The position numbers were made by a program, and so were the translations under genes. The notes below the pieces were generated by a model. That model searched no databases. It had not been told where the DNA came from and saw only the letters and a program-made list of their open reading frames with translations. Shown here piece after piece: positions 32,974 to 44,832 of a stretch of DNA of 64,000 nt (positions are counted from its first letter, which is position 1; each line of letters starts with the position of its first letter). This DNA comes from an uncultured delta proteobacterium (lineage in GTDB: Bacteria > Desulfobacterota > Desulfomonilia > Desulfomonilales > Desulfomonilaceae): NCBI GenBank assembly GCA_963789265.1, contig CAWBKB010000001.1, positions 2,112,001-2,176,000 of the forward strand. The letters run 5' to 3'.

Positions 32974-33264
32974 ATGTTTACAATAGAGGACGAGGCTCGC
33001 AACTATTTCAAGTCGAAATTGGGCGAGAAGCAAGCTGTCCGTGTATACTTCGGCGGCTACGGTTGAGGAGGGCCCAGCATGGGCTTGGCTCTGGATGAGC
33101 CCCGTGATGGTGATTTGACTTATGAGGTTGACGATCTTACGGTTATCGTTGACCCCTTTGCCCTCAAAGTGATCAAAGAATCAGGCGGCATCAATATACG
33201 CTCGAGCGTCTTCGGACCAATGGCGGAGTTGGAGAGTTGCGCAGCCGGTGGCTGTAGCTGCTGA
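32974..33264 (+). CDS. HesB/IscA-like selenoprotein (UGA 33064-33066 = Sec)
   Basis: ATG after GAGGTG gives MFTIEDEARNYFKSKLGEKQAVRVYFGGYG-U-GGPSMGLALDEP...GGCSC; SECIS-like GGCTC-TGGAT-GAGCC at 33087-33101. Confidence 0.85.
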
Positions 33265-33280
33265 TGTGAGGGGAGTCGAT

Positions 33281-33484: not shown

Positions 33485-33686
33485 CGACGGACCGCGGTGC
33501 GCGGTAGTCAAAAGTGGAATCGTTTAGCAATATAACATGAGCGCGAGGGCTCCGACAAAGTTTGGAGTTCTGATTCCCGAGTTCCGCCCGGTGTCCCGCA
33601 GCTCGCGGGCTCTGCCCGCAACTGCCTTTATTTCACTATCATAATCGAGGCAGAGCCTTTCGGGCAGGCATTCCCAGGCAGAGCCC

Positions 33687-33874
33687 CATAGGCGCTAACT
33701 TAACCCCGTGAAACGCGGAGTTCCCCCCTTTCGTAAAGGGGGGCCAGGGGGGATTTTGGGATAACTACTTGAAAATCCCCCTCAATCCCCCTTTAGAAAA
33801 GGGGGACTTTGATCTCCCTCGGCCTTCACGGACTTCCTGAAAAGGAACGAAATTGCCTTAAGTTAACGCCTATG
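33687..33874. mobile_element. 188-bp CAT...ATG MITE (IS4/IS231-like ends) with 11-bp target duplication
   Basis: TIRs CATAGGCGCTAACTTAA / TTAAGTTAACGCCTATG; flanks AGGCAGAGCCC / AGGCAAAGCCC. Confidence 0.75.
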
Positions 33875-34048
33875 AGGCAAAGCCCGAGAACGAGAAAAAT
33901 GGTTTCCCTGCCTGTCGTTTCCACGTGTGCGGAATGACTGGCGGGTAAAAAACTTGAATGATCATTCAGACTCGGGTTGGCCTGATCATAAGCCCCGGAA
34001 AGAAGGGAAGATTCGTCCGTCGTTCCACCTTCTGTAACTTTACCTACA

Positions 34049-35323
34049 TCAATCCCACTTGCGAACGTCTACGATCATCTTCTGATCGTCCGGCAGCTTT
34101 CCGGGATCAACAATTCTGACAACGCCCTTCAGCTTGAAAACTTCTCGAATTGTCTGCTCTATTGCAGGAACAAGTCCCTCTCGCGGCGGCTGCTTGAGCT
34201 CGACCTCGAGTGTCATAACGTCCAAATCCTGCGGCCGCTCAACCAAGAGCCTGGCTCGTGCAATTTCCGGGTGGGTGTCGACGACTTTCTGGACCTGTGA
34301 AGGATGCACGAACATCCCCTTCACCTTGGTGAGCTGATCGGCGCGGCCCATGATGCGGGTCAGGCGCGGGCCGGTCCGCCCGCACGGGCACGGGTCATCC
34401 ACGAGGCTTGAAAGGTCACCCGTCCCAAATCGCACCAGAGGGTAGATCCTGTTGTTGCAGGTCACCACAACTTCGCCTGCCTCTCCATCCGGGACGACTT
34501 GCCCTGTGTTCGGATCGCAGATCTCCACTATCACATCGTGATGGATGTGCATGCCGTTTACCTGAGGGCACTCGTACGATACACATCCCACGTCTGCGGT
34601 GCCGTAAGCCTGCCGCCCAATCAGATGGTAATCGTCCACCAACCTCTTCCGTAGCGATCCCGGCAACATTTCCGCCAAGAGGAATCCGATTTCCAGGCTG
34701 AATTCCTCTGCCACTCGGATGCCCATCTCTTCAGCCTTTTTAAAAATAGCCATAAGAAAGCTCGGCGTACCGATGTAACCGTTCACTCCGAGGTCCTTCA
34801 TAATTCCGACCTGTGCTTCTGTATTCCCGACACCGGTGGGGATGATTGTGGCACCGAGTTCCGACACCCCTTCTTCAAACATGTGTCCCGCGGGAGTCAG
34901 GTGGTACGCGAAGGTGTTGACCACCAGATCTCCGGGTCTGAACCCAGCGGCGTATAAAGCGCTTTTCCAACGCCAGTAATCGGGAACCTTTCCCACTGGA
35001 TCGTAAATGGGCCCGGGCGATTGATGTATCCTGACTAAATTGGAAGCGGAAACAGTTAGGAATCCTCCAAACGGTGGTTTCGCCTTCTGCGCACTCGAAA
35101 GATCCCTCTTTCTGGTGATGGGGATTTTCTGCAGATCATCGATGGTTCTCATATCCGAGGGGTTGACCCCCTCGGCGTCCATGGCAGTTTTCAGAGGCGT
35201 TCCCGCAGCGTAAGCGTGGGCAATCACTTGCTGGAGAAACTCTACTTGATAAGAGCGTCTCTCGTCCGCAGAAAACTTCTCCTGCGGATTTAGTATCCCG
35301 GAATTCCTATCTACTTGGCGCAT
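34049..35323 (-). CDS. Phenylacetate-CoA ligase (PaaK) family protein
   Basis: LQKIPITRK, QSPGP P-loop variant, GTPSFL, AYGTADVG, PLVRFGTGD, GRADQLTKVKGMFVHP. Confidence 0.88.
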   Translation of the reverse strand: MRQVDRNSGILNPQEKFSADERRSYQVEFLQQVIAHAYAAGTPLKTAMDAEGVNPSDMRTIDDLQKIPITRKRDLSSAQKAKPPFGGFLTVSASNLVRIHQSPGPIYDPVGKVPDYWRWKSALYAAGFRPGDLVVNTFAYHLTPAGHMFEEGVSELGATIIPTGVGNTEAQVGIMKDLGVNGYIGTPSFLMAIFKKAEEMGIRVAEEFSLEIGFLLAEMLPGSLRKRLVDDYHLIGRQAYGTADVGCVSYECPQVNGMHIHHDVIVEICDPNTGQVVPDGEAGEVVVTCNNRIYPLVRFGTGDLSSLVDDPCPCGRTGPRLTRIMGRADQLTKVKGMFVHPSQVQKVVDTHPEIARARLLVERPQDLDVMTLEVELKQPPREGLVPAIEQTIREVFKLKGVVRIVDPGKLPDDQKMIVDVRKWD

Positions 35324-35405
35324 GCCGTCCTCCTTGGATTCGTTGGAGACTGCGATAAAGATTTCTTGAGCAGAGAAACACGCACACTTGCATGGAGCCA
35401 CAGAT

Positions 35406-35485
35406 TGTCATTGCGAGCGGAGCGAAGCAATCTTCTTCACTGACAGAGCTCAGATTGCTTCGTCGCTTCACTCCTCGCAATGACA
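35406..35485. repeat. GTCATTGCGAG...CTCGCAATGAC palindromic repeat
   Basis: Second copy at 44913-44988. Confidence 0.75.
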
Positions 35486-35526
35486 AAGGACCTGCGATTC
35501 TCAGCGTAAGTAAACGCTTAACCTTA

Positions 35527-35669
<143 letters not shown>

Positions 35670-35769
35670 GAGGCAGACAGGGCGCGCCGTGCCCGAAGGG
35701 GCTCGAAATCAGCGGCGGTCATGGGCCGCCCTACCCGCTCTAAATAAAAAGGTTAAATCGCACCTTACT

Positions 35770-37398
35770 TCAAAAAATGCTCGGCTCCCTGAATTCTCCG
35801 AAGACCTGTCTGAAAACGTCCGCCATTTCGCCAACCGTGCAATAGGCTTCGCAACAGTCAACGAGCGCGGGCATTACGTTCTCCTTTCCTCGTGCAACAC
35901 TCTCGAGTGCCTTCAGCGTCCGTGAAACCTCCGAGCTGCTGCGTTCCGACTTCATGCGCTTAAGGCTGTCGATCTGCTTCAATTGGGTTTGCGGGTCGTA
36001 TTCATGGAGTTCCACGTCCGGCTCGGCTTCATCAACGTATTTGTTCACCCCGATCTTTATGTACTCCCCTGTCTTGATCCCCCGTTCCCAATCGTACGCC
36101 TGTTGCGAGACCAGTTTCTGCACGAATCCGCTCGATACCGCTTCTATCATCCCGCCGACATCCTGAATTTTCCTCCGCTCCTGTTCTATTTTGTCTTCCA
36201 TCTGTTTGGTGAGGGTCTCGACAAAATAGGAGCCGGCCAGAGGATCTACGGTGTCGCGCAGCCCGATTTCATCCATGAGCAATTCGCAGGTTCGTAGCGA
36301 CAAGAGCGCGGCCCTCGGGGTGGGAATCGTGAAAGCCTCGTCAAAAGAGCAGAGAGCCGTGGTCTGAGCTCCTGCCAGAGCGGCCGCGAGCGCATAATAC
36401 GAACTGCGTATGATGTTGTTTTCCGGCTGAGCTTTGGTCAGTCCGAATCCGCCTCCGCCGAAAAGTCCTCTCAGATGCATGGATTGCGGCCTTTTCGCGC
36501 CGTATTTCTCCTTTAGGTTCTTGGCCCATAGCTTGCGCGCAGCTCTGAACTTCGCCACCTGCTCCCAGATGTTGCCGAATATGTTGAAATTAAAGGTGAT
36601 TCCTCGTGCCACGTCGTCCACGGAGAGGCCGCGAGACAGCGCTTCATCGATATAGGTGTCGGCTATCTCTAAGGCAAATCCGATCTCCTGGGCTGGATTG
36701 GCTCCGGATTCTCGAATATGATAACCGCAAACCGAGACCGGATTGCACCGCGGAAGAGTGGTAATGGAATACTCTATAGTGTCACCAATGAGACGCACCG
36801 CGTCTTCAACCGGGTAGATCCAAGCGCCGCGGCCTATCATTTCCTTAAGGATGTCATTTTGGGGGGTTGCACTGATGCGGGTGACATCGAATCCTCGTTT
36901 CTCGGCCATTGCTTGATACATTGCCAGCATGACGCAAGCGACCGCGTTTATTGTCAACCCGGATCCGATTGTGTCCAGTTGAATGTCCGCGAAGGCGACT
37001 TCGAAGTCTCGCAGGGTGTCCACAGCCATACCTACCCGCCCAACTTCGCCGTCTACTATGGGATTGTCCGAGTCGTATCCCATCTGGGTGGGCAGATCAA
37101 AGGCCACATTAAGTCCGGTCTGGCCGTGCGAAATCAGGAGCTTGAACCGCTCGTTCGTCTCGCTGGGGGTGCCGAATCCTGAATATTGGCGGGTTGTCCA
37201 AGCGCGAGAGCGGTAACCTTCAGGGTGAATTCCTCTGGTAAAAGGGTATTCCCCGGGGTCCGCAAGATCTTGATCGTAATCGAAGCCAATCTCTTCGAGA
37301 TCTTCCGGGCAATATTTGGTTTTCACTTTGATCCCCGACTGGAGGATCACGTCTTCAATGCCATCCTTGTTATTCTTTATGTATTTGGCTACACCCAT
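35770..37398 (-). CDS. B12-dependent acyl-CoA mutase, large (substrate-binding) subunit, methylmalonyl-CoA mutase family
   Basis: PGEYPFTRGIH, WTTRQYSGFG, AFDLPTQMGYDSD, QNDILKE, GYHIRESGA, DPLAGSYFVE; no B12-binding domain. Confidence 0.92.
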   Translation of the reverse strand: MGVAKYIKNNKDGIEDVILQSGIKVKTKYCPEDLEEIGFDYDQDLADPGEYPFTRGIHPEGYRSRAWTTRQYSGFGTPSETNERFKLLISHGQTGLNVAFDLPTQMGYDSDNPIVDGEVGRVGMAVDTLRDFEVAFADIQLDTIGSGLTINAVACVMLAMYQAMAEKRGFDVTRISATPQNDILKEMIGRGAWIYPVEDAVRLIGDTIEYSITTLPRCNPVSVCGYHIRESGANPAQEIGFALEIADTYIDEALSRGLSVDDVARGITFNFNIFGNIWEQVAKFRAARKLWAKNLKEKYGAKRPQSMHLRGLFGGGGFGLTKAQPENNIIRSSYYALAAALAGAQTTALCSFDEAFTIPTPRAALLSLRTCELLMDEIGLRDTVDPLAGSYFVETLTKQMEDKIEQERRKIQDVGGMIEAVSSGFVQKLVSQQAYDWERGIKTGEYIKIGVNKYVDEAEPDVELHEYDPQTQLKQIDSLKRMKSERSSSEVSRTLKALESVARGKENVMPALVDCCEAYCTVGEMADVFRQVFGEFREPSIF

Positions 37399-37686
37399 GA
37401 TTGCCTTCCTGTGTGGGAAATGTGCTCGCTGGATCCCTGAGCGCTGCGTTTCACAAACATAGCGTCGTTTGCAGAGTAGGACCGGCATCTTGCCGGTTAG
37501 CAGCAAGAGCGATTGATCGGCAAGATACCCGCCTTATTGCGGGCTGCCGCAACGTGGTAGAGTCGCCAATCTTCAAGTTCTCTCTAGACCCGTGGTAGGG
37601 CGGGCCATGCCCGCCCGCGCCCGACATTAGCCGCGGCCACGGGCCGCCCTACCTGCTCCAGATCCGGCGCCAAAGTAACCGAGAGC

Positions 37687-38883
37687 CTAAATGACGCCGT
37701 CGGCCCTCATAGCAGCCAGTTCATTTGCACTCATGCCCAACTCAGTTCCATAAACGGCTTCATTGTGCTCGCCGAAGCGAGGGGGAAATGTGAGCGTCCG
37801 ATGATTCGCCTCAAGGAACGGTCCGGACACAGGTGGAGGGGCCAGAGTGAGTTCGAAGCCGGACTTTTCATCTCTGGCCTTTATCAACTTGCCGCAAACC
37901 AGAGGGTCCCGGGCCACATCCGTTACTGTGTTGATTTTGGAGGCAGCGACGCCGATACTGTTCATCAATCCCAAAAGGGTGTTTGTGTTCATTTTGCAGG
38001 TGGTTTCAGAGATCATCTTGTTTATTTTGTCCACATCAGCGATTCGGCCCGCATTCTTCCTGTACGAATCCTTGGCAAGCGACGAGAACTCGGGCAGGGA
38101 CGAGAACGCCTGGAACTGTTTGTCATTACCTACCGCAATATAGACATAGCCGTCGGAAGTGGGATACACCGACACAGGAGCAAAGAATTCGTGGGTGTTC
38201 CCTCGTCGGGAGATCTTTTTGCCAAACGAACAGGTCATAGTGATAGGCACCGTCAGCCAAGAAGGTAGGTACTTTCGAACATGGAGATGTCGACTCGACT
38301 TCCTTTGCCTGTCATGGCTTTGACGAAAAGCGCCTTCATGATAAGGCCGTAGGCATGCTCGCTCGTTCCCATGTCGGGCAGCGGGATTCCAACCACCTGC
38401 GGAGTGCCTCCGGCCTCGCCCGTCAACTCCATGAGTCCGCCACGGGCTTGAAGGATCGGATCGGTACGCGACCTCATTGCTATCAGGACCGAACCCCGTG
38501 ATTCCGAGCCAGATCAGGTCTTCCTTGACCGACCTCAACGTTTCGTAGTCTATGCCCAGTTTGGTGTAATTCCTCGGGAGTTGATTCGTGGCAAAGATGT
38601 CGACTTTCAATTCGCGTATAAGCCGTGCCAATATCTCCTTGCCTCTGGGTTCGGCCAAATTAAGGGTGATGGCTTCCTTTCCCGCGTTTATGGCCATAAA
38701 ATAACTATTCATCCGCTCCTCTCCATCAAGGAACGGCTCCCCGACGAGCCTGTTAGGGTCGCCATAGATAGGGTGCTCAACCCGGATTACGCGGCAACCA
38801 TCTATTGCCAGCCGGTAGGTGAGATAAGGTAGGACTGTGGCTTGTTCCAGGGATAGCATCCTGATGTTCCCGAAGAGATCCAT
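37687..38883 (-). CDS. CaiB/BaiF class III CoA-transferase (frameshifts near 38465 and 38270)
   Basis: LEQATVLP, RVIRVEHP..GDPNR, NAGKEAITLNL, GITGFG; middle part in ORF 38253..38477; PPRFGEHN C-terminus. Confidence 0.87.
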   Translation of the reverse strand: MDLFGNIRMLSLEQATVLPYLTYRLAIDGCRVIRVEHPIYGDPNRLVGEPFLDGEERMNSYFMAINAGKEAITLNLAEPRGKEILARLIRELKVDIFATNQLPRNYTKLGIDYETLRSVKEDLIWLGITGFGPDSNEVAYRSDPSSPWRTHGVDGRGRRHSAGGWNPAARHGNERACLRPYHEGAFRQSHDRQRKSSRHLHVRKYLPSWLTVPITMTCSFGKKISRRGNTHEFFAPVSVYPTSDGYVYIAVGNDKQFQAFSSLPEFSSLAKDSYRKNAGRIADVDKINKMISETTCKMNTNTLLGLMNSIGVAASKINTVTDVARDPLVCGKLIKARDEKSGFELTLAPPPVSGPFLEANHRTLTFPPRFGEHNEAVYGTELGMSANELAAMRADGVI

Positions 38884-38915
38884 CTGCCTGCTCTCCTTCC
38901 GTTGGGACAATGATG

Positions 38916-39007
38916 TTGACAGTGATTTTCCGAGTGCCTATGATGGGTTGGCTGAAAGGACAGCAATCCTTTGTAACCAGTTAATCCGATAAGAACAGTC
39001 GTGTCAA
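38916..39007. promoter_or_regulatory. Face-to-face sigma70 promoters for the two divergent catabolic operons
   Basis: Plus TTGACA-N17-TATGAT (38916-38944); minus TTGACA-N17-TTAACT (39007-38979). Confidence 0.6.
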
Positions 39008-39106
39008 GCTCATTGCAGAGTCTCGAACAACTTCCGTGAGAACGCTTTACGTGCCGTCAGTTACCGATCCCATGCCCTCTTGAAACCGGACATTCGAGGA
39101 GCACCA

Positions 39107-40130
39107 ATGCGCCTGCCTTCTTTCGCCTACCATGCGCCGCACAGCCTGGATCAAGCATTGAAAATCAAGGGGGAACTTGGCACGCAGGCCGCGTTTCTTG
39201 CCGGCGGCACCGATCTTATAGTGAATCTTAAACATCGGCTTTCTTCCCCCTCAGCCCTCGTCAGTTTACGGAATATCAAAGAGATCAAAGGGATCGAAGT
39301 CAAACCCGATGCCGTGATCGTAAAGGCGGCAACCTCCCTGATAGAGATAAAAAGCAATGAGGCTGTTCGCACTCACTTCCCTATCCTCGTGAAGGCCGTA
39401 GAATCCATAGGTGCGCTGGGGATCCAGGGTTTTCGAGGCACGATAGGGGGAAATCTTTGTCTGCAACCTCGCTGTATCCTCTATAACCAGTCGCTCTTCT
39501 GGCGGACCGGCAAAACAAAATGCCACCGAACAGGAGGCAAAGAGTGTCTTGCCCTTCAGGGCTCCGAATCGTGCAACTCCATCTGCTCGGGCGACACTGT
39601 CCCGGTGCTGGCGGCCTTGTCCGCGCAACTTTCTATCGCAGGGAGCGGCGGCCAAAGGACGGACCCGGTGGCGGATTTCTTCACGAACAAGGGAGAAAGT
39701 CCTTTTAATCTTGCTCCGGATGAGATTGTAACCGCGATACGAATACCCATCCCGTGGGCGCCGATGTCCTGGTCCTATCAGCGTCTTAGTCTCAGGTCCG
39801 CAGTTGATTTTCCTCTCGTCAACGCGGCCGCAGCGGCGATAATTGACAAGGGAAGAGTTGAAAGCTTCCGGCTAGTACTTTCCGCTCTAGGCCCGGGACC
39901 TCTGGGTACTCAAAGAAGCTGAAGCCATTGTGAGAGGGAGAAAACCGGATAACGCAATGGTCCATGAAGCAGGCGAGATCGCTCGGCGAACCGCAGAAGG
40001 CGTGGTTGTTGAGAATGCTGTAACTTCCAAAGCCTACAGAGTCAAGATGGCCGCGGTTATGGCTAGGCGGGCCGTAGAAGAGGCGCTAGCTCTTGGTTCA
40101 TCTCAGTCCGCGGTAATTGAGGGTCAATAA
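39107..40130 (+). CDS. Xanthine-oxidase-family FAD subunit with HcrB-type [4Fe-4S] insert (frameshift near 39900)
   Basis: AGGTDL, TIGGNLC, RCILYNQSLFWR...C..C..C insert; C-terminus in ORF 39930..40130. Confidence 0.88.
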
Positions 40131-40621
40131 TGAAGAAACAGCTCGTTACTATGACCGTCAACGGCAATGAAATCGAGATTGCCGTGACCCCCAACAGCAC
40201 GCTGCTGGAAGTTCTTCGCGACGAGCTTGGCTTCACGGGCGTCAAGGAAGGTTGTTCCGAAGGCGTGTGCGGAGCGTGTACCGTTCTCCTGGACGGAGCG
40301 CCGGTAAGGTCGTGCCTCACACTGGCCCTTGAAGCCGAAGGCACGTCCATCACCACTATTGAGGGACTCGCTTCTGATGGGAGGCTCCACCCTGTTCAGC
40401 AGGCATTCATAGATCACGGGGCTGTCCAGTGCGGATTCTGCACTCCGGGTATGATACTCTCGTCCAAAGCGTTGCTGGATAGGAGCCCTCATCCCACGGA
40501 TGAAGAGATCAAGACTGCTCTGGCCGGCAATTTTTGCCGATGCACGGGGTACAAAAAGACTCTTGAGGCAGTTCGGTCCGTGGCGAGACAAAATACCACA
40601 GAGACGGGCGAGAAAGGTTAA
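40130..40621 (+). CDS. Xanthine-oxidase-family 2x[2Fe-2S] subunit
   Basis: GCSEGVCGAC, QCGFCTPG, CRCTGY. Confidence 0.95.
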   Translation: MKKQLVTMTVNGNEIEIAVTPNSTLLEVLRDELGFTGVKEGCSEGVCGACTVLLDGAPVRSCLTLALEAEGTSITTIEGLASDGRLHPVQQAFIDHGAVQCGFCTPGMILSSKALLDRSPHPTDEEIKTALAGNFCRCTGYKKTLEAVRSVARQNTTETGEKG

Positions 40622-40633
40622 CCAACACAGTGT

Positions 40634-40667
40634 CAGTAGGACCGTCCCGCGCGGAACGGTCCTACTG
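40634..40667. repeat. GTAG-type REP-like hairpin
   Basis: CAGTAGGACCGT...ACGGTCCTACTG. Confidence 0.6.
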
Positions 40668-40760
40668 TGGCAATGGAGCCACGTCGATCACCAGGAAAAT
40701 GCCGCCGAGTTTGAAAAGTGAATTACTTGGTCCCATCTGAACCAGTCGGAGGCGAAGACA

Positions 40761-43094
40761 TTGCCTGAGTACAGTCTCATCGGGAAAAGCATCCCCCGCG
40801 TTGACTCTCTGCCCAAGGTTACAGGCGAGGCGATTTTCACGGCGGACTTGAGCCTTCCCAAGATGCTAGTGGGTAAGATACTGCGCAGCCCTTATCCCCA
40901 TGCCCGAATCCTTGACGTTGACACGTCAAAGGCTCGGCAGCTTCGTGGGGTTCAGGCGGTGGTAACGGGCAAGGATACCGCAGGGGAAAAGTGGGGCGTA
41001 TTCAGGTACACGTGGGACCAGCAACTGCTCTGCGTAGACAAGGTCCGATACGTTGGAGACGAGGTCGCGGCCGTTGCCGCCGTTGATGAGGATACGGCCC
41101 TGGAGGCGCTCAGCCTTATCCAGGTCGATTACGAAGAATTGCCCGCAGTTTTTGACTGTCATTCCGCGTTAGCCCCGGACGCGGCTTTGCTTCACGACGA
41201 ATATGCGCATAACGTTAACGTCGCTGTTAACATTGATGTCGGTAACGTGGATGCGGCATTCAAAGGATGCGCATTGATTCGCGAGGACACCTTTGTAGCG
41301 GAAGAAGACTCGTACTTCATGATCGAACCTTACGCGGTGGTGGCAAGTTATCACGCAGACGGTTCGATTGAAGTCTGGATGCCGAACGCGTCTCCGCACA
41401 CCAAAGCCAAAGCATTATCGAATGCGCTACAATTGCCCCTTTCAAAGGTAAACGTTCGTAAGATCACAATCGGCGGTGCTTTTGGGGGTCGATCCGACGT
41501 TTTTCCTGCGGAATTCATTACCTGCCTCCTCAGCATAAAGGCTCAAAGGCCGGTCAAGCTGGTTTACTCCCGTGAAGAGAACTCCATTGCCACCCGCATG
41601 GGTCATGCAATGATTACCACCATCAAGACCGGCGTGGACAAAGATGGGAAGGTCCTGGCAAGAGACATCGTTTCATATCTGGATGGCGGGGCATATTCGA
41701 GTACCGGTCCCATCGCAACTTCGGTCCCGTTCCTATGCCACGAGCAGACGTACCGTATGGACAATGTCCGATTCCGCGGGTATCGCATCTACACGAACAA
41801 GCCGGTCAGAGGAATGATCCGTATTCACGGCAGATCGTTTGCATGCGGGATTGACACGCAACTGGACATGATTGCCGAGCAATTGGAGATCGACCCGGTG
41901 ACGATCCGGCTCCGTAATGCACGGCGACCGGGCGAAACGACTCCCACCGGTTCGTACGTGGCGAGCTGCGGTCTCGTGGAGTGCATAGAAAAGACAGCGG
42001 CCGAGAGCAAATTCATTGAGAAATTCCGCAATCCTGCTCCTAACCGCGGAATCGGCATGGGTCTGAATTCGGTGCAAACCGGATTCCCCTTGGGGATTCG
42101 CGGCGGTTCCCAGGCGTTCATAAAGTTTCATGAAGATGGTGGGGCCACTGTGATTTCAGGGGTCGTGGACAACGGTCAGGGAAACGACAACATGCTGGTT
42201 CAGATCGCTGCCGAGGAGCTTGGGCTTCCGCTTGAAGATATCCGGCTCATATCCGCGGACACGGAAGTCACCCCAACTGATGCAGGCTCGTATTCCATGA
42301 TTTCCACGTTTGGCGGAGGGAACGCGGTAAAGACGGCAGCAGCAGATGCCAGGACTCAGCTCTTCGCGGTAGCCTCGGACATGCTGGAGGCCGATCCGGC
42401 GGATCTGGTGGCCAAGGACGGGAAAATATATGTCAAGGGCGCTCCAGGTGCAGGTCTTTCCATTGCTAAGGTCGTGCGCAGGGCGTTGATCATGGGCCGA
42501 CCGATAATGGGGCGAGGTGCATTTTCACCAAAGGTGGACCAGCGACGAGAGTGGATAACGAATCCTAAAGGTCAACTCTCGCAGGCGTTTTCGTTCGGTG
42601 CGACAGTTACAGAGGTTGAAGTGGACCCTGAAACAGGCCAGGTCAAGGCGCTTGAAGTTACGTGCGCTCAGGACTGCGGCTTCGCGTTGAACCCTCTGGT
42701 GGTAGAAGGGCAGTTTGAGGGCGGAGTGGCAATGGGAGGCCAGGGTGGAATGCTCGCCGAGGAGCATCGTTGGAGCCAGGGGCACCTATTAAATCCCACA
42801 ATGCTCGAATACAAGATCCCAATAATAAAGGACATGCCCAATATCAAGCCGATCATCGTGGAATCCATAGATCCTGCCGGGCCGTACGGGGCAAAAGAAG
42901 CCGGCATGTCCATCGCTATGTCAGCAGCCCAGGCATACTGCAACGCGGTGAGCAAAGCCCTTGGGATCTATTTTAACCATTACCCGTTGACGCCCGAGCG
43001 AATCCTCGACGCAATCGAGAACAAGAAGCCCGGCATACACACAGCTTGGGAATTCGAGCCTGCCAGACCCGTTGAAGTGGAGCGCGGGCCTTAG
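40761..43094 (+). CDS. Xanthine-oxidase-family molybdopterin subunit (HcrA-like, divergent)
   Basis: RSPYPHARI, GGAFGG, GQG, EVEVDPETG, GPYGAKEAG. Confidence 0.92.
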   Translation: MPEYSLIGKSIPRVDSLPKVTGEAIFTADLSLPKMLVGKILRSPYPHARILDVDTSKARQLRGVQAVVTGKDTAGEKWGVFRYTWDQQLLCVDKVRYVGDEVAAVAAVDEDTALEALSLIQVDYEELPAVFDCHSALAPDAALLHDEYAHNVNVAVNIDVGNVDAAFKGCALIREDTFVAEEDSYFMIEPYAVVASYHADGSIEVWMPNASPHTKAKALSNALQLPLSKVNVRKITIGGAFGGRSDVFPAEFITCLLSIKAQRPVKLVYSREENSIATRMGHAMITTIKTGVDKDGKVLARDIVSYLDGGAYSSTGPIATSVPFLCHEQTYRMDNVRFRGYRIYTNKPVRGMIRIHGRSFACGIDTQLDMIAEQLEIDPVTIRLRNARRPGETTPTGSYVASCGLVECIEKTAAESKFIEKFRNPAPNRGIGMGLNSVQTGFPLGIRGGSQAFIKFHEDGGATVISGVVDNGQGNDNMLVQIAAEELGLPLEDIRLISADTEVTPTDAGSYSMISTFGGGNAVKTAAADARTQLFAVASDMLEADPADLVAKDGKIYVKGAPGAGLSIAKVVRRALIMGRPIMGRGAFSPKVDQRREWITNPKGQLSQAFSFGATVTEVEVDPETGQVKALEVTCAQDCGFALNPLVVEGQFEGGVAMGGQGGMLAEEHRWSQGHLLNPTMLEYKIPIIKDMPNIKPIIVESIDPAGPYGAKEAGMSIAMSAAQAYCNAVSKALGIYFNHYPLTPERILDAIENKKPGIHTAWEFEPARPVEVERGP

Positions 43095-43241
43095 TTCTCG
43101 AATCCTGATATTCTTACTTTTGTTCCGGCGTGTTCAAACGACAAGTCCGAACGGTCCATTCTGCACCAAGGGCCACGAAATATTTTTGCGAGACCTCCAA
43201 TTGGCGGAGTTTTCGCGGACTAGCTGTTTGAGGAGGTTTTC

Positions 43242-44832
43242 ATGACGGTCAGCAAGTGGATCCACATGGGAACGGTTTTAAGCCAGCATGCAGTCCATTA
43301 TCCGGATAAGCTCGGGTGTCAGGACAAGAAGAAGAGCTTCACCTTCAAGGAATGGAACGAAAGGAGTTGCTGCCTCGGAAATGCCCTTACCGACATAGGA
43401 TGCGGCCACGGCGAGCGCTTTGCCGTGTTGGCTTTCAACAGGGTTGAGTGGATGGAGATTTATGCCGGTTGCGCTAAGGGGGGGCAGATCTGTGTACCGC
43501 TCATGTTCCGGCTGGCCGGACCTGAAATTGAATACATCGTCAACGATTCCAATTGCAAAGCCTTGATCGTAGAGAAGCCTTTGGTAGACACCATCGAGGG
43601 TATCAAAAGCAAACTGTCCATACCTGCCGGGAATTACATTTGCCTGGGAGAGCCCGGAGAGCCCGTACCGGAGGGCTATATCGGATACGAAGAGTGGCTT
43701 GCGACAGCATCGTCGGAAGAGCCTGAAGTTGTTGTCGGTGCAGAAGATCCCTGGACCTTTATGTATACCTCCGGGACGACCGGCAGGCCGAAAGGTGTCG
43801 TGAGGACTCACGAGAGTTATCTGGGAATGTACTATCTTGATATAGCCAATATGGGCTTGCGGCCGACAGATAAACCGCTCATGGTTATGCCCATGTGTCA
43901 CGTCAATTCGATCTATTATTCATTTCCTTATACTCTTTTGACTGCCCCGGTCTGTGTGTACAACGAATCGAGTTTCTCACCGGAAGATTTTCTCGATACA
44001 GTCGAAAAATTCCACATCACCTTCGTCTCCCTGGTACCCACCCATTACATCATGATCCTTTCCCTGCCCGATCCAATCAAGAAGAAGTACGACGTATCGA
44101 GCATGCGTCAAATGCTGATCTCATCTGCTCCGGCTCGCAGGGATACCAAGGTGGCCGTTTCTGGAATTCTTCAGGAACGCTGAACTTTGGGAAGCGTACG
44201 GGTCCACCGAAGCCGGCCTTGTAACACTGTGCCGCCCGGAGGATCAGCTTCGCAAGATGGGAACGATCGGCCAGGAGATCTTCGGAATAGACCGTATAAA
44301 AGTGATGGATGAAGATGGGAACGAAGTGCCGGACGGTCAAGTTGGCGAACTTTACGCCCGCACCCCAATAATGTTCAAGGAATACTGGAACTTGCCGGAT
44401 AAGACCAAAGAGGTCTTCCAGGGTGAATGGTTCACCGCCGGCGACATGTGTTACCGCGATCCTGACGGATTCTATGTGCTGGTTGACCGCAAGGCCAACA
44501 TGATAATCTCCGGAGGCGAAAATATCTTTCCGTCCGAAGTTGAAAACGCGGTGGGTTCCCATTCGTCCGTGAAAGATGTGGCGGTGATAGGAATTCCGCA
44601 CGAGAAATGGGGTGAAGCGGTCCATGCCGTGATCATCCTCAAGGAGGAAAAAGAGCCCACTAACGGGCTGAAAGATGAGATCAGGAGATTTGCAAAAACC
44701 AAGATAGCCGCTTACAAGGTGCCCAAAACCATTGATTTTATCGAAGATGATGAAATGCCCCGCACTGGCACAGGCAAAATCCTCCACCGTGTGCTCAGGG
44801 AAAAATACGGCAAATGGAGCGATAAGCAGTAA
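43242..44832 (+). CDS. AMP-binding acyl/aryl-CoA ligase (frameshift near 44160)
   Basis: YTSGTTGRPKG, YGSTE, WFTAGD, DRKANMIISGGENIFP, PRTGTGK. Confidence 0.9.

Follow-up and report, generated by a model that had tools for sequence, protein, structure and literature searches.

A glutamate-less Hcr-related molybdoenzyme trimer beside indoleacetate-type mutase and transferase genes in a Desulfomonilaceae genome

The window analysed here is a 64,000-nucleotide stretch of DNA (positions 2,112,001 to 2,176,000 of contig CAWBKB010000001.1, assembly GCA_963789265.1) from an uncultured delta proteobacterium of the Desulfomonilaceae, whose assembly comprises 6.06 Mb in 9 contigs. Near the middle of the window lie seven genes in two divergent groups. 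A PaaK-like CoA ligase, the large subunit of a B12-dependent acyl-CoA mutase and a family III CoA-transferase are read leftward, while the FAD, iron-sulfur (FeS) and molybdenum (Mo) subunits of a xanthine-oxidase-family enzyme and a FadD-like CoA ligase are read rightward. An earlier sequence-only reading proposed these families and strands, and they were confirmed for all seven genes. Judged by sequence, the mutase and transferase are members of the IaaH and IaaL families of anaerobic indoleacetate (iaa) degradation, as that reading had suspected, and the Mo subunit lacks the catalytic glutamate. The favoured interpretation, to which we give a probability of roughly 55%, is that the five genes between the ligases supply the middle and end of an anaerobic indoleacetate pathway scattered over the genome, with the glutamate-less Mo trimer as a more tentative reductase of an ortho-amino aryl-CoA, most likely 2-aminobenzoyl-CoA.

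The cassette and its indoleacetate relatives

Twenty loci were taken around the best mutase matches of 61 relatives. In 18 of these the mutase is 82–95% identical to that of the window and is adjoined by the transferase without exception, with the FAD/FeS/Mo genes lying divergently beside the pair in at least 15 (two loci were ended by contig ends). This grouping of mutase, transferase and Mo genes exceeds chance. The PaaK-like ligase stands beside the mutase in at least nine of the 18. The sequence-only reading had expected its genes to remain together in relatives and the mutase to stand apart from ordinary methylmalonyl-CoA mutase (MCM), which holds for the mutase-transferase pair and the mutase phylogeny but not for the PaaK-like ligase. 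In the other two loci, and in six taken later, the mutase is 67–71% identical and lies within a long operon. This runs through the transferase, EtfB and EtfA of an electron-transferring flavoprotein (ETF), an acyl-CoA dehydrogenase, GntR, the small and large mutase subunits and hydantoinase A and B, and continues with a PaaK-type ligase, one FAD/FeS/Mo set and a second set 63–66% identical to that of the window. In metagenomes, 80 loci were kept of 433 confirmed matches, and the majority repeat parts of the long operon. The sources of close mutase homologues name Desulfomonilaceae.

In the window the two ligases flank the mutase, transferase and Mo genes. In relative G016 they are direct divergent neighbours, with flanks as in the window and no cassette, and in relative G033 one unrelated open reading frame (ORF) lies between them, again with no cassette. 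Hence the five genes at 35770–43094 form a cassette inserted between two resident ligase genes, and the ligases, which the sequence-only reading had counted in the cluster, were rejected as pathway members. Orthologues of the PaaK-like ligase are 65–78% identical in all five genomes searched. Those of the FadD-like ligase are 79–83% identical in G016 and G033, where they lie away from iaa operons, and orthologues of both occur far from iaa genes in genomes of the operon type. Neither ligase is an IaaB orthologue; the FadD-like ligase is 31% identical to IaaB and is not the best IaaB match of the genome. The PaaK-like ligase fails the PaaK profile TIGR02155 (Table 1), and a PDB search yielded no assignable substrate for the FadD-like ligase. 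The latter could have been recruited to the pathway after the insertion.

The IaaH references come from A. buckelii, A. anaerobium and isolate FeB_8, three named iaa loci reached through the iaaF primer in the accessible text of PMC8360864; strain EbN1 is not among them. The window mutase is the best match to IaaH in its genome, at 55% identity, against 42–46% to plasmid MCM/HCM-type proteins. It forms one clade with IaaH, apart from MCM and HcmA, in trees built with FastTree (support 99, 101 rows) and with IQ-TREE under LG+G4 (100/99, 26-row subset). The motifs IGRG[AT]W, NFNIFGN, GGGG and LCS[FY]DEA are common to the mutase and IaaH and absent from MCM and HcmA, and in both a Gly-rich loop stands in place of HxQT. 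The mutase retains the Tyr, Gln and Arg found in dicarboxyl-CoA mutases, presumably with their usual roles in the pocket; the motif set was derived in this analysis. The MCM/HCM motifs HxQT and LHTN and a grouping with MCM or HcmA were not found for the window mutase, so an ordinary MCM was rejected by motifs and tree, and a canonical MCM-type gene sits at C1:332297 (C numbers denote contigs). The enzyme is likely to be a (2-aminophenyl)succinyl-CoA mutase, as predicted from its family. Within the genome, IaaL finds its best match in the transferase, of which an intact orthologue is 38% identical to IaaL with motifs in common. A further mutase at C1:116294–120449 is divergent, with TFSGSC for HxQT, belongs with neither MCM nor IaaH, and is accompanied by epimerase-like, carboxyltransferase and small-subunit genes.

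The sequence-only reading reported a hydantoinase and a mutase small subunit as absent, and neither is found among the ORFs of the window region. Both occur elsewhere in the genome, so that a new, self-contained aryl-succinyl route, the second option of that reading, is not supported. Relatives of IaaCE, of IaaF with its GGG motif, of the IaaIJK hydroxylase and of IaaL are all present, not in a single operon but at five or more sites on contigs C1, C5 and C6. The hydantoinase groups with IaaE (70.6% identity, support 100), the small subunit nests with IaaG (SH-aLRT 92), and the dehydrogenase nests with IaaF (99) and carries GGG. The gene beside icmF is predicted to encode the separate small subunit of the mutase. 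In many genomes of the family an IaaG-clade subunit gene immediately precedes icmF, and the subunit possibly shares the MeaB-like chaperone domain of icmF. According to a tally compiled from separate searches of the family sample, 21 genomes with a window-type mutase carry the icmF-side small subunit in 20 cases, the dehydrogenase in 21, the IaaK-like gene in 20 and an IaaE-like gene at least 85% identical in 19 (three partial or split). By the same tally, eight genomes with the full operon carry the scattered small subunit once, the IaaE-like gene once, and the dehydrogenase and IaaK-like gene not at all. The genome also holds a dienoyl-CoA hydratase-like gene and two indolepyruvate oxidoreductase-like genes, all under cut-off, consistent with a benzoyl-CoA pathway and supply from tryptophan.

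Compared with intact relatives, five single-base insertions break the FAD, transferase and FadD-like ligase genes. Three fall in the transferase gene, at ~38261, 38267 and 38462, where they throw ~65 residues out of frame; the other two genes have one each. The extra base at 39904 is absent from short-read contigs of runs X1 and X2, which possibly derive from a near-identical second copy, and those at 38463 and 44158 are absent from contigs of X3, a ~92% relative. The three runs belong to one study, and positions ~38261 and ~38267 lie outside what that comparison showed. As the same kind of splitting affects many other genes of the assembly, all five frameshifts are likely assembly errors.

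A molybdenum trimer without the catalytic glutamate

The trimer is nearest to HcrABC. Its Mo subunit is 37% identical to that of 1rm6, and an alignment-based fold model (pLDDT 90) has a TM-score of 0.91 to this structure. All three subunits remain under the Hcr cut-offs, with TIGR03195 at 217 against 405 (scored on the intact orthologue), TIGR03193 at 193 against 258 and TIGR03194 as given in Table 1. The Mo subunit is also no IaaK, being 34% identical, placed in a separate clade (FastTree, with long-branch warnings) and without the glutamate, which agrees with the sequence-only reading of an Hcr-like rather than IaaIJK-like enzyme. Based on sequence, the trimer is an undescribed Hcr-related enzyme family, neither IaaIJK nor HcrABC. 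The FAD subunit contains the four cysteines of the HcrB-type 4Fe-4S loop, as do all 23 other rows listed; this loop is described in the accessible part of PMC11760930.

In the part of PMC13653126 that is accessible, the glutamate is called essential, and aldehyde oxidation in the xanthine-oxidase family is said to need it as a base. At its position the window subunit has Met716. All 31 family rows have Met, 23 of 23 further rows Met or Leu, and 120 of 120 database homologues Leu or Ile, against Glu in all 35 other Mo proteins with letters at this column. Asn209 stands where other rows carry Gln, and the Gln of TQxP and the MRGxG and SSR motifs are also altered. E713, three residues before Met716, is conserved as in HcrA, and the subunit retains its GGAFGG and GQG loops along with the fold. 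The altered residues are strongly conserved in members down to 49% identity, and a YqeB-type maturation gene lies beside some operons of the family. In three Rhodocyclales genomes the glutamate-less trimer was not found when the TIGR03194 matches were examined. The sequence-only reading overlooked the glutamate loss, the duplication of the trimer and the frameshifts. Four further Hcr-like Mo sets occur in the genome (L150–L153); the large subunits of L150, L151 and L153 were aligned and all keep Glu. One of the four adjoins a 63% paralogue of the FadD-like ligase.

The second copy of the trimer has 97.6–99.4% DNA identity and an intact FAD gene (C1:59521–60576). It ends an operon at C1:48713–63700 with a flavin oxidoreductase, hydantoinase A and B, a ligase, a dehydrogenase and an NCS1-like permease. 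This hydantoinase is 43% and 34% identical to IaaC and IaaE, and the dehydrogenase has an AGG motif and is sister to the IaaF clade. A short-read contig spans the left edge of the copy, and in relative G005 both genes lie on a single contig and point the same way. G005 is also the only one of five same-genus genomes with a close hydantoinase. The operon, which appears to open a lactam, might handle quinolinone.

The trimer is further associated with a class III aminotransferase, which is accompanied across loci by a saccharopine-dehydrogenase-like gene and has 3-aminobutyryl-CoA aminotransferase as its top Atlas cluster (0.99). This enzyme, Kat, is described in PMC3149608, the accessible text of which also mentions a 60% homologue of undefined role in an aromatic-degrading sulfate reducer. 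A phylum sample of 401 genomes, with thresholds set by us and two to four candidates scored per genome, contains the Mo gene in 69, the mutase in 88 and the aminotransferase in 52. The mutase is present in 68 of the 69 Mo carriers (~15 by chance), within 20 kb in 21 of the 68. The Mo gene and aminotransferase occur together in 44 genomes, 30 of which have them within 10 kb, and 48 of the 52 aminotransferase carriers have an IaaH-family mutase.

Desulfatiglans anilini is a cultured carrier of the Mo family (WP_028323006.1). The accessible text of PMC8360864 predicts iaa operons with ETF in strict anaerobes such as this species, and the available proteome table in the supplement of PMC7500099 contains a cluster laid out in the same way, whose proteins match in length, among them a mutase of 542 aa. 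According to that table, several cluster proteins are made on aniline, 4-aminobenzoate, benzoate and phenol alike; the conditions included no ortho-amino substrate. The Mo member was matched to H567DRAFT_01700 by its 759 aa and 82.176 kDa. Other Hcr-like proteins are induced ~100-fold on aniline and 4-aminobenzoate. The Mo family was rejected as the source of the 4-aminobenzoyl-CoA reductase of D. anilini, as the induced large subunits differ (307- and 183-aa entries) and the family member is seen weakly on benzoate and is absent on aniline and 4-aminobenzoate, which argues against a para-amino enzyme. The D. anilini cluster adjoins trpBA. Such trp-gene neighbours hint at a link to indole or tryptophan.

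Proposed pathway and its alternatives

The PaaK-type ligase that adjoins the hydantoinase genes would activate indoleacetate, the IaaK-like trimer would hydroxylate it and the IaaCE pair would then open the ring. The window transferase and mutase, together with the icmF-side small subunit, would take (2-aminophenyl)succinyl-CoA to (2-aminobenzyl)malonyl-CoA, and the GGG-motif dehydrogenase with its ETF would carry out the decarboxylation. Orthology makes this series from activation to decarboxylation very probable. The glutamate-less trimer would follow, drawing low-potential electrons through its 4Fe-4S/FAD arm. In one option it would expel ammonia to give benzoyl-CoA. In the other it would reduce the ring to an imine or enamine, from which the saccharopine-dehydrogenase-like enzyme and Kat-like beta-transaminase would form a 2-oxo ring-CoA.

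A reductase for an ortho-amino aryl-CoA is proposed because an IaaK orthologue already covers hydroxylation, the wiring is Hcr-like, the hydroxylation base is gone and the second operon, which appears to open a lactam, recruited the same trimer. The transaminase link fits as well: 2-aminobenzoyl-CoA carries its amino group beta to the thioester, where a Kat-type enzyme would require it once the ring is reduced. Genomic context thus tentatively points to 2-aminobenzoyl-CoA, or a close ortho-amino aryl-CoA, as the substrate. An Hcr-like 2-aminobenzoyl-CoA reductase has reportedly been proposed in Ferroglobus, which a literature search did not confirm. The activity is reported for Azoarcus in the review PMC4539516, the accessible text of which names no gene. 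It is more doubtful whether the trimer is the 2-aminobenzoyl-CoA reductase of strict anaerobes in general, a new catalytic type of the xanthine-oxidase family forming a nitrogen-stripping module with the transaminase and imine reductase. If true, this module may supply the benzoyl-CoA pathway at a point downstream of its costliest step, in roughly one-sixth of the genomes in the phylum sample.

Several points weigh against the favoured interpretation. The loss of the glutamate could mean that catalysis is lost, and the 4Fe-4S loop alone is no proof of a reductase, given that E. coli PaoB has one too. No orthologue of IaaB (best match 40%) or IaaA (best match 30%) was found in the genome, and full operons often hold another hydantoinase clade only 30–36% identical to IaaCE. 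As the window mutase clade is sister to IaaH rather than nested within it, the substrate could differ. Kin within the phylum sample are not independent, 20 of the 88 mutase genomes have no Mo match, and 25 of the 69 Mo genomes have no aminotransferase match. Lastly, H567DRAFT_01700 is represented by 2 peptides on benzoate and none on aniline or 4-aminobenzoate, in a single row of the D. anilini table.

The trimer may instead act on an earlier or side metabolite, 2-aminocinnamoyl-CoA or the quinolinones formed by its ring closure, which is unlikely but agrees with several observations. Beta-oxidation genes are not consistently linked to these loci, the second trimer copy lies in an operon apparently suited to reducing and opening a lactam such as quinolinone, and dihydro-2-oxoquinoline is a reported anaerobic intermediate in the accessible part of PMC5677008. 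However, the substrate of that operon is itself presumed, and the link to a beta-amino-acyl-CoA transaminase is explained less directly.

Also rather unlikely is that the mutase and transferase serve the iaa pathway while the trimer is an upstream oxidoreductase, for example converting indoleacetaldehyde, made from tryptamine by the aminotransferase, to indoleacetate. Its tight linkage to the aminotransferase and saccharopine-dehydrogenase-like genes would suit this role, as would a gene that we take to be TrpB2-like just downstream of several modules (L048:11211–12590; L257, L265, L266). Conversely, the Glu base that aldehyde oxidation needs is missing (PMC13653126, accessible part), the aminotransferase resembles an acyl-CoA beta-transaminase, and the trimer subunits group with Hcr-type proteins.

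It is improbable that the whole anaerobe clade uses another aryl- or heteroaryl-succinyl-CoA with no indoleacetate derivative involved. The 55% and 38% identities of the mutase (sister to IaaH) and transferase, the second hydantoinase clade in many operons, the frequency of 88 in 401 phylum genomes, high for one substrate, and the D. anilini proteins made alike on four substrates (PMC7500099, table as available) would all be accounted for. Against this stand a hydantoinase that is a true IaaCE relative (56% and 71%), orthologues of IaaF, G, H, K and L, and the assignment of such ETF-containing operons to iaa in the accessible text of PMC8360864.

That the Mo subunit is inactive or cofactor-free, leaving the trimer as an electron-transfer or binding module, would explain why the Glu, the TQxP Gln and the MRGxG and SSR motifs have all changed, but is very unlikely given the conservation of these changes down to 49% identity, the retained loops and fold, and the YqeB-type gene of some operons. 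A self-contained new pathway of all seven genes for some aromatic acid is hardly tenable, since, although many window-type loci have the FadD-like ligase downstream of the Mo genes in the same orientation, the ligases flank an empty site in G016 and G033, the cassette parts derive from iaa operons, and the mutase depends on a small subunit whose gene lies elsewhere.

Table 1. Genes of the window (positions in the window) and related genes elsewhere in the genome (contig:position).
Feature	Position	Strand	Remarks
PaaK-like CoA ligase	34049-35323	-	424 aa from the ATG used; longest ORF start 35401; TIGR02155 203 bits vs cut-off 646
B12 acyl-CoA mutase large subunit, IaaH family	35770-37398	-	542 aa, without B12 domain; 55% to Aromatoleum IaaH
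Family III CoA-transferase, IaaL type	37687-38883	-	PF02515; three +1 insertions
FAD subunit, HcrB-type 4Fe-4S loop	39107-40130	+	TIGR03195 best family, under cut-off; +1 insertion near 39903
2x[2Fe-2S] subunit	40130-40621	+	PF00111, PF01799
Xanthine-oxidase-family Mo subunit, Hcr-related clade	40761-43094	+	TIGR03194 668 bits vs cut-off 995; Met716, Asn209
FadD-like CoA ligase	43242-44832	+	+1 insertion near 44156; downstream of Mo genes, same strand
IaaCE-like hydantoinase pair	C5:193664-197517		56% (IaaC), 71% (IaaE)
PaaK-type ligase beside hydantoinase	C5:198013-199324
GGG-motif dehydrogenase (IaaF-like) and ETF	C6:382947-386186
IaaK-like Mo trimer	C1:918189-922311		IaaK clade
IaaG-clade B12-binding small subunit	C1:2504833-2505255		Beside icmF
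Saccharopine-dehydrogenase-like gene and Kat-like class III aminotransferase	C8:32851-35499

Other features of the window lie outside the cassette. Intergenic repeats at 33685–33875 and 35406–35485 have many copies in the genome or in short-read runs. A small ORF at 32976–33265, which we take to resemble a HesB-like selenoprotein, reads GG-Y-G-TGA-GG across an in-frame TGA and is followed by a small zinc-ribbon ORF. The segment 47036–52926 encodes a BsuBI/PstI-type restriction endonuclease and methyltransferase, then a low-GC ORF of 988 aa that has a GTPase-like motif.

Significance and comparison with known systems

The sequence-only reading is thus partly supported. The pathway is known, its anaerobe form has already been predicted and the split layout is a variant. 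A literature search, mostly of open-access papers, found nothing on a glutamate-less Hcr-like family, its transaminase module or this locus, although the original iaa papers may mention such clusters or Hcr-like neighbours. The mutase and transferase belong, as ordinary members, to a pathway whose presence in sulfate reducers had been predicted before. Indoleacetate breakdown ends in 2-aminobenzoyl-CoA, and the trimer is a candidate for how strict anaerobes take off its amino group. A xanthine-oxidase-family clade consistently without a glutamate regarded as essential is of interest to molybdoenzyme specialists. Indoleacetate is a tryptophan product, and the presence of the pathway in 88 of the 401 phylum genomes, including ones of 1.5–1.9 Mb, suggests that carbon derived from tryptophan plays a larger part in anoxic sediments and digesters.

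The window resembles the Aromatoleum iaa operon in its IaaH-family mutase and IaaL-family transferase, with relatives of IaaC, E, F, G and K elsewhere in the genome. It differs in that the genes are split over at least five places, an ETF is present, IaaB and IaaA orthologues were not found in the genome and a glutamate-less Mo trimer is added. The mutase clade, transferase, ETF, GGG dehydrogenase and PaaK-type ligase are shared with the anaerobe iaa operons predicted in the accessible text of PMC8360864. Unlike in those operons, only the mutase, transferase and second Mo trimer remain together here, inserted between two ligases, and the small subunit has been relocated beside icmF.

HcrABC of Thauera aromatica (1rm6) is the closest solved sequence and fold to the trimer and shares its three subunits and the 4Fe-4S cysteine loop of the FAD subunit. 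The window trimer, in contrast, falls under the curated cut-offs, has Met, Leu or Ile for Glu and changed Mo-site motifs, and is linked to iaa and transaminase genes. Similarly, the linked aminotransferase is class III and GSA-mutase-like, as is Kat in the accessible text of PMC3149608, a likeness taken from the Atlas cluster match, whereas its context is the iaa genes and Mo trimer instead of lysine fermentation.

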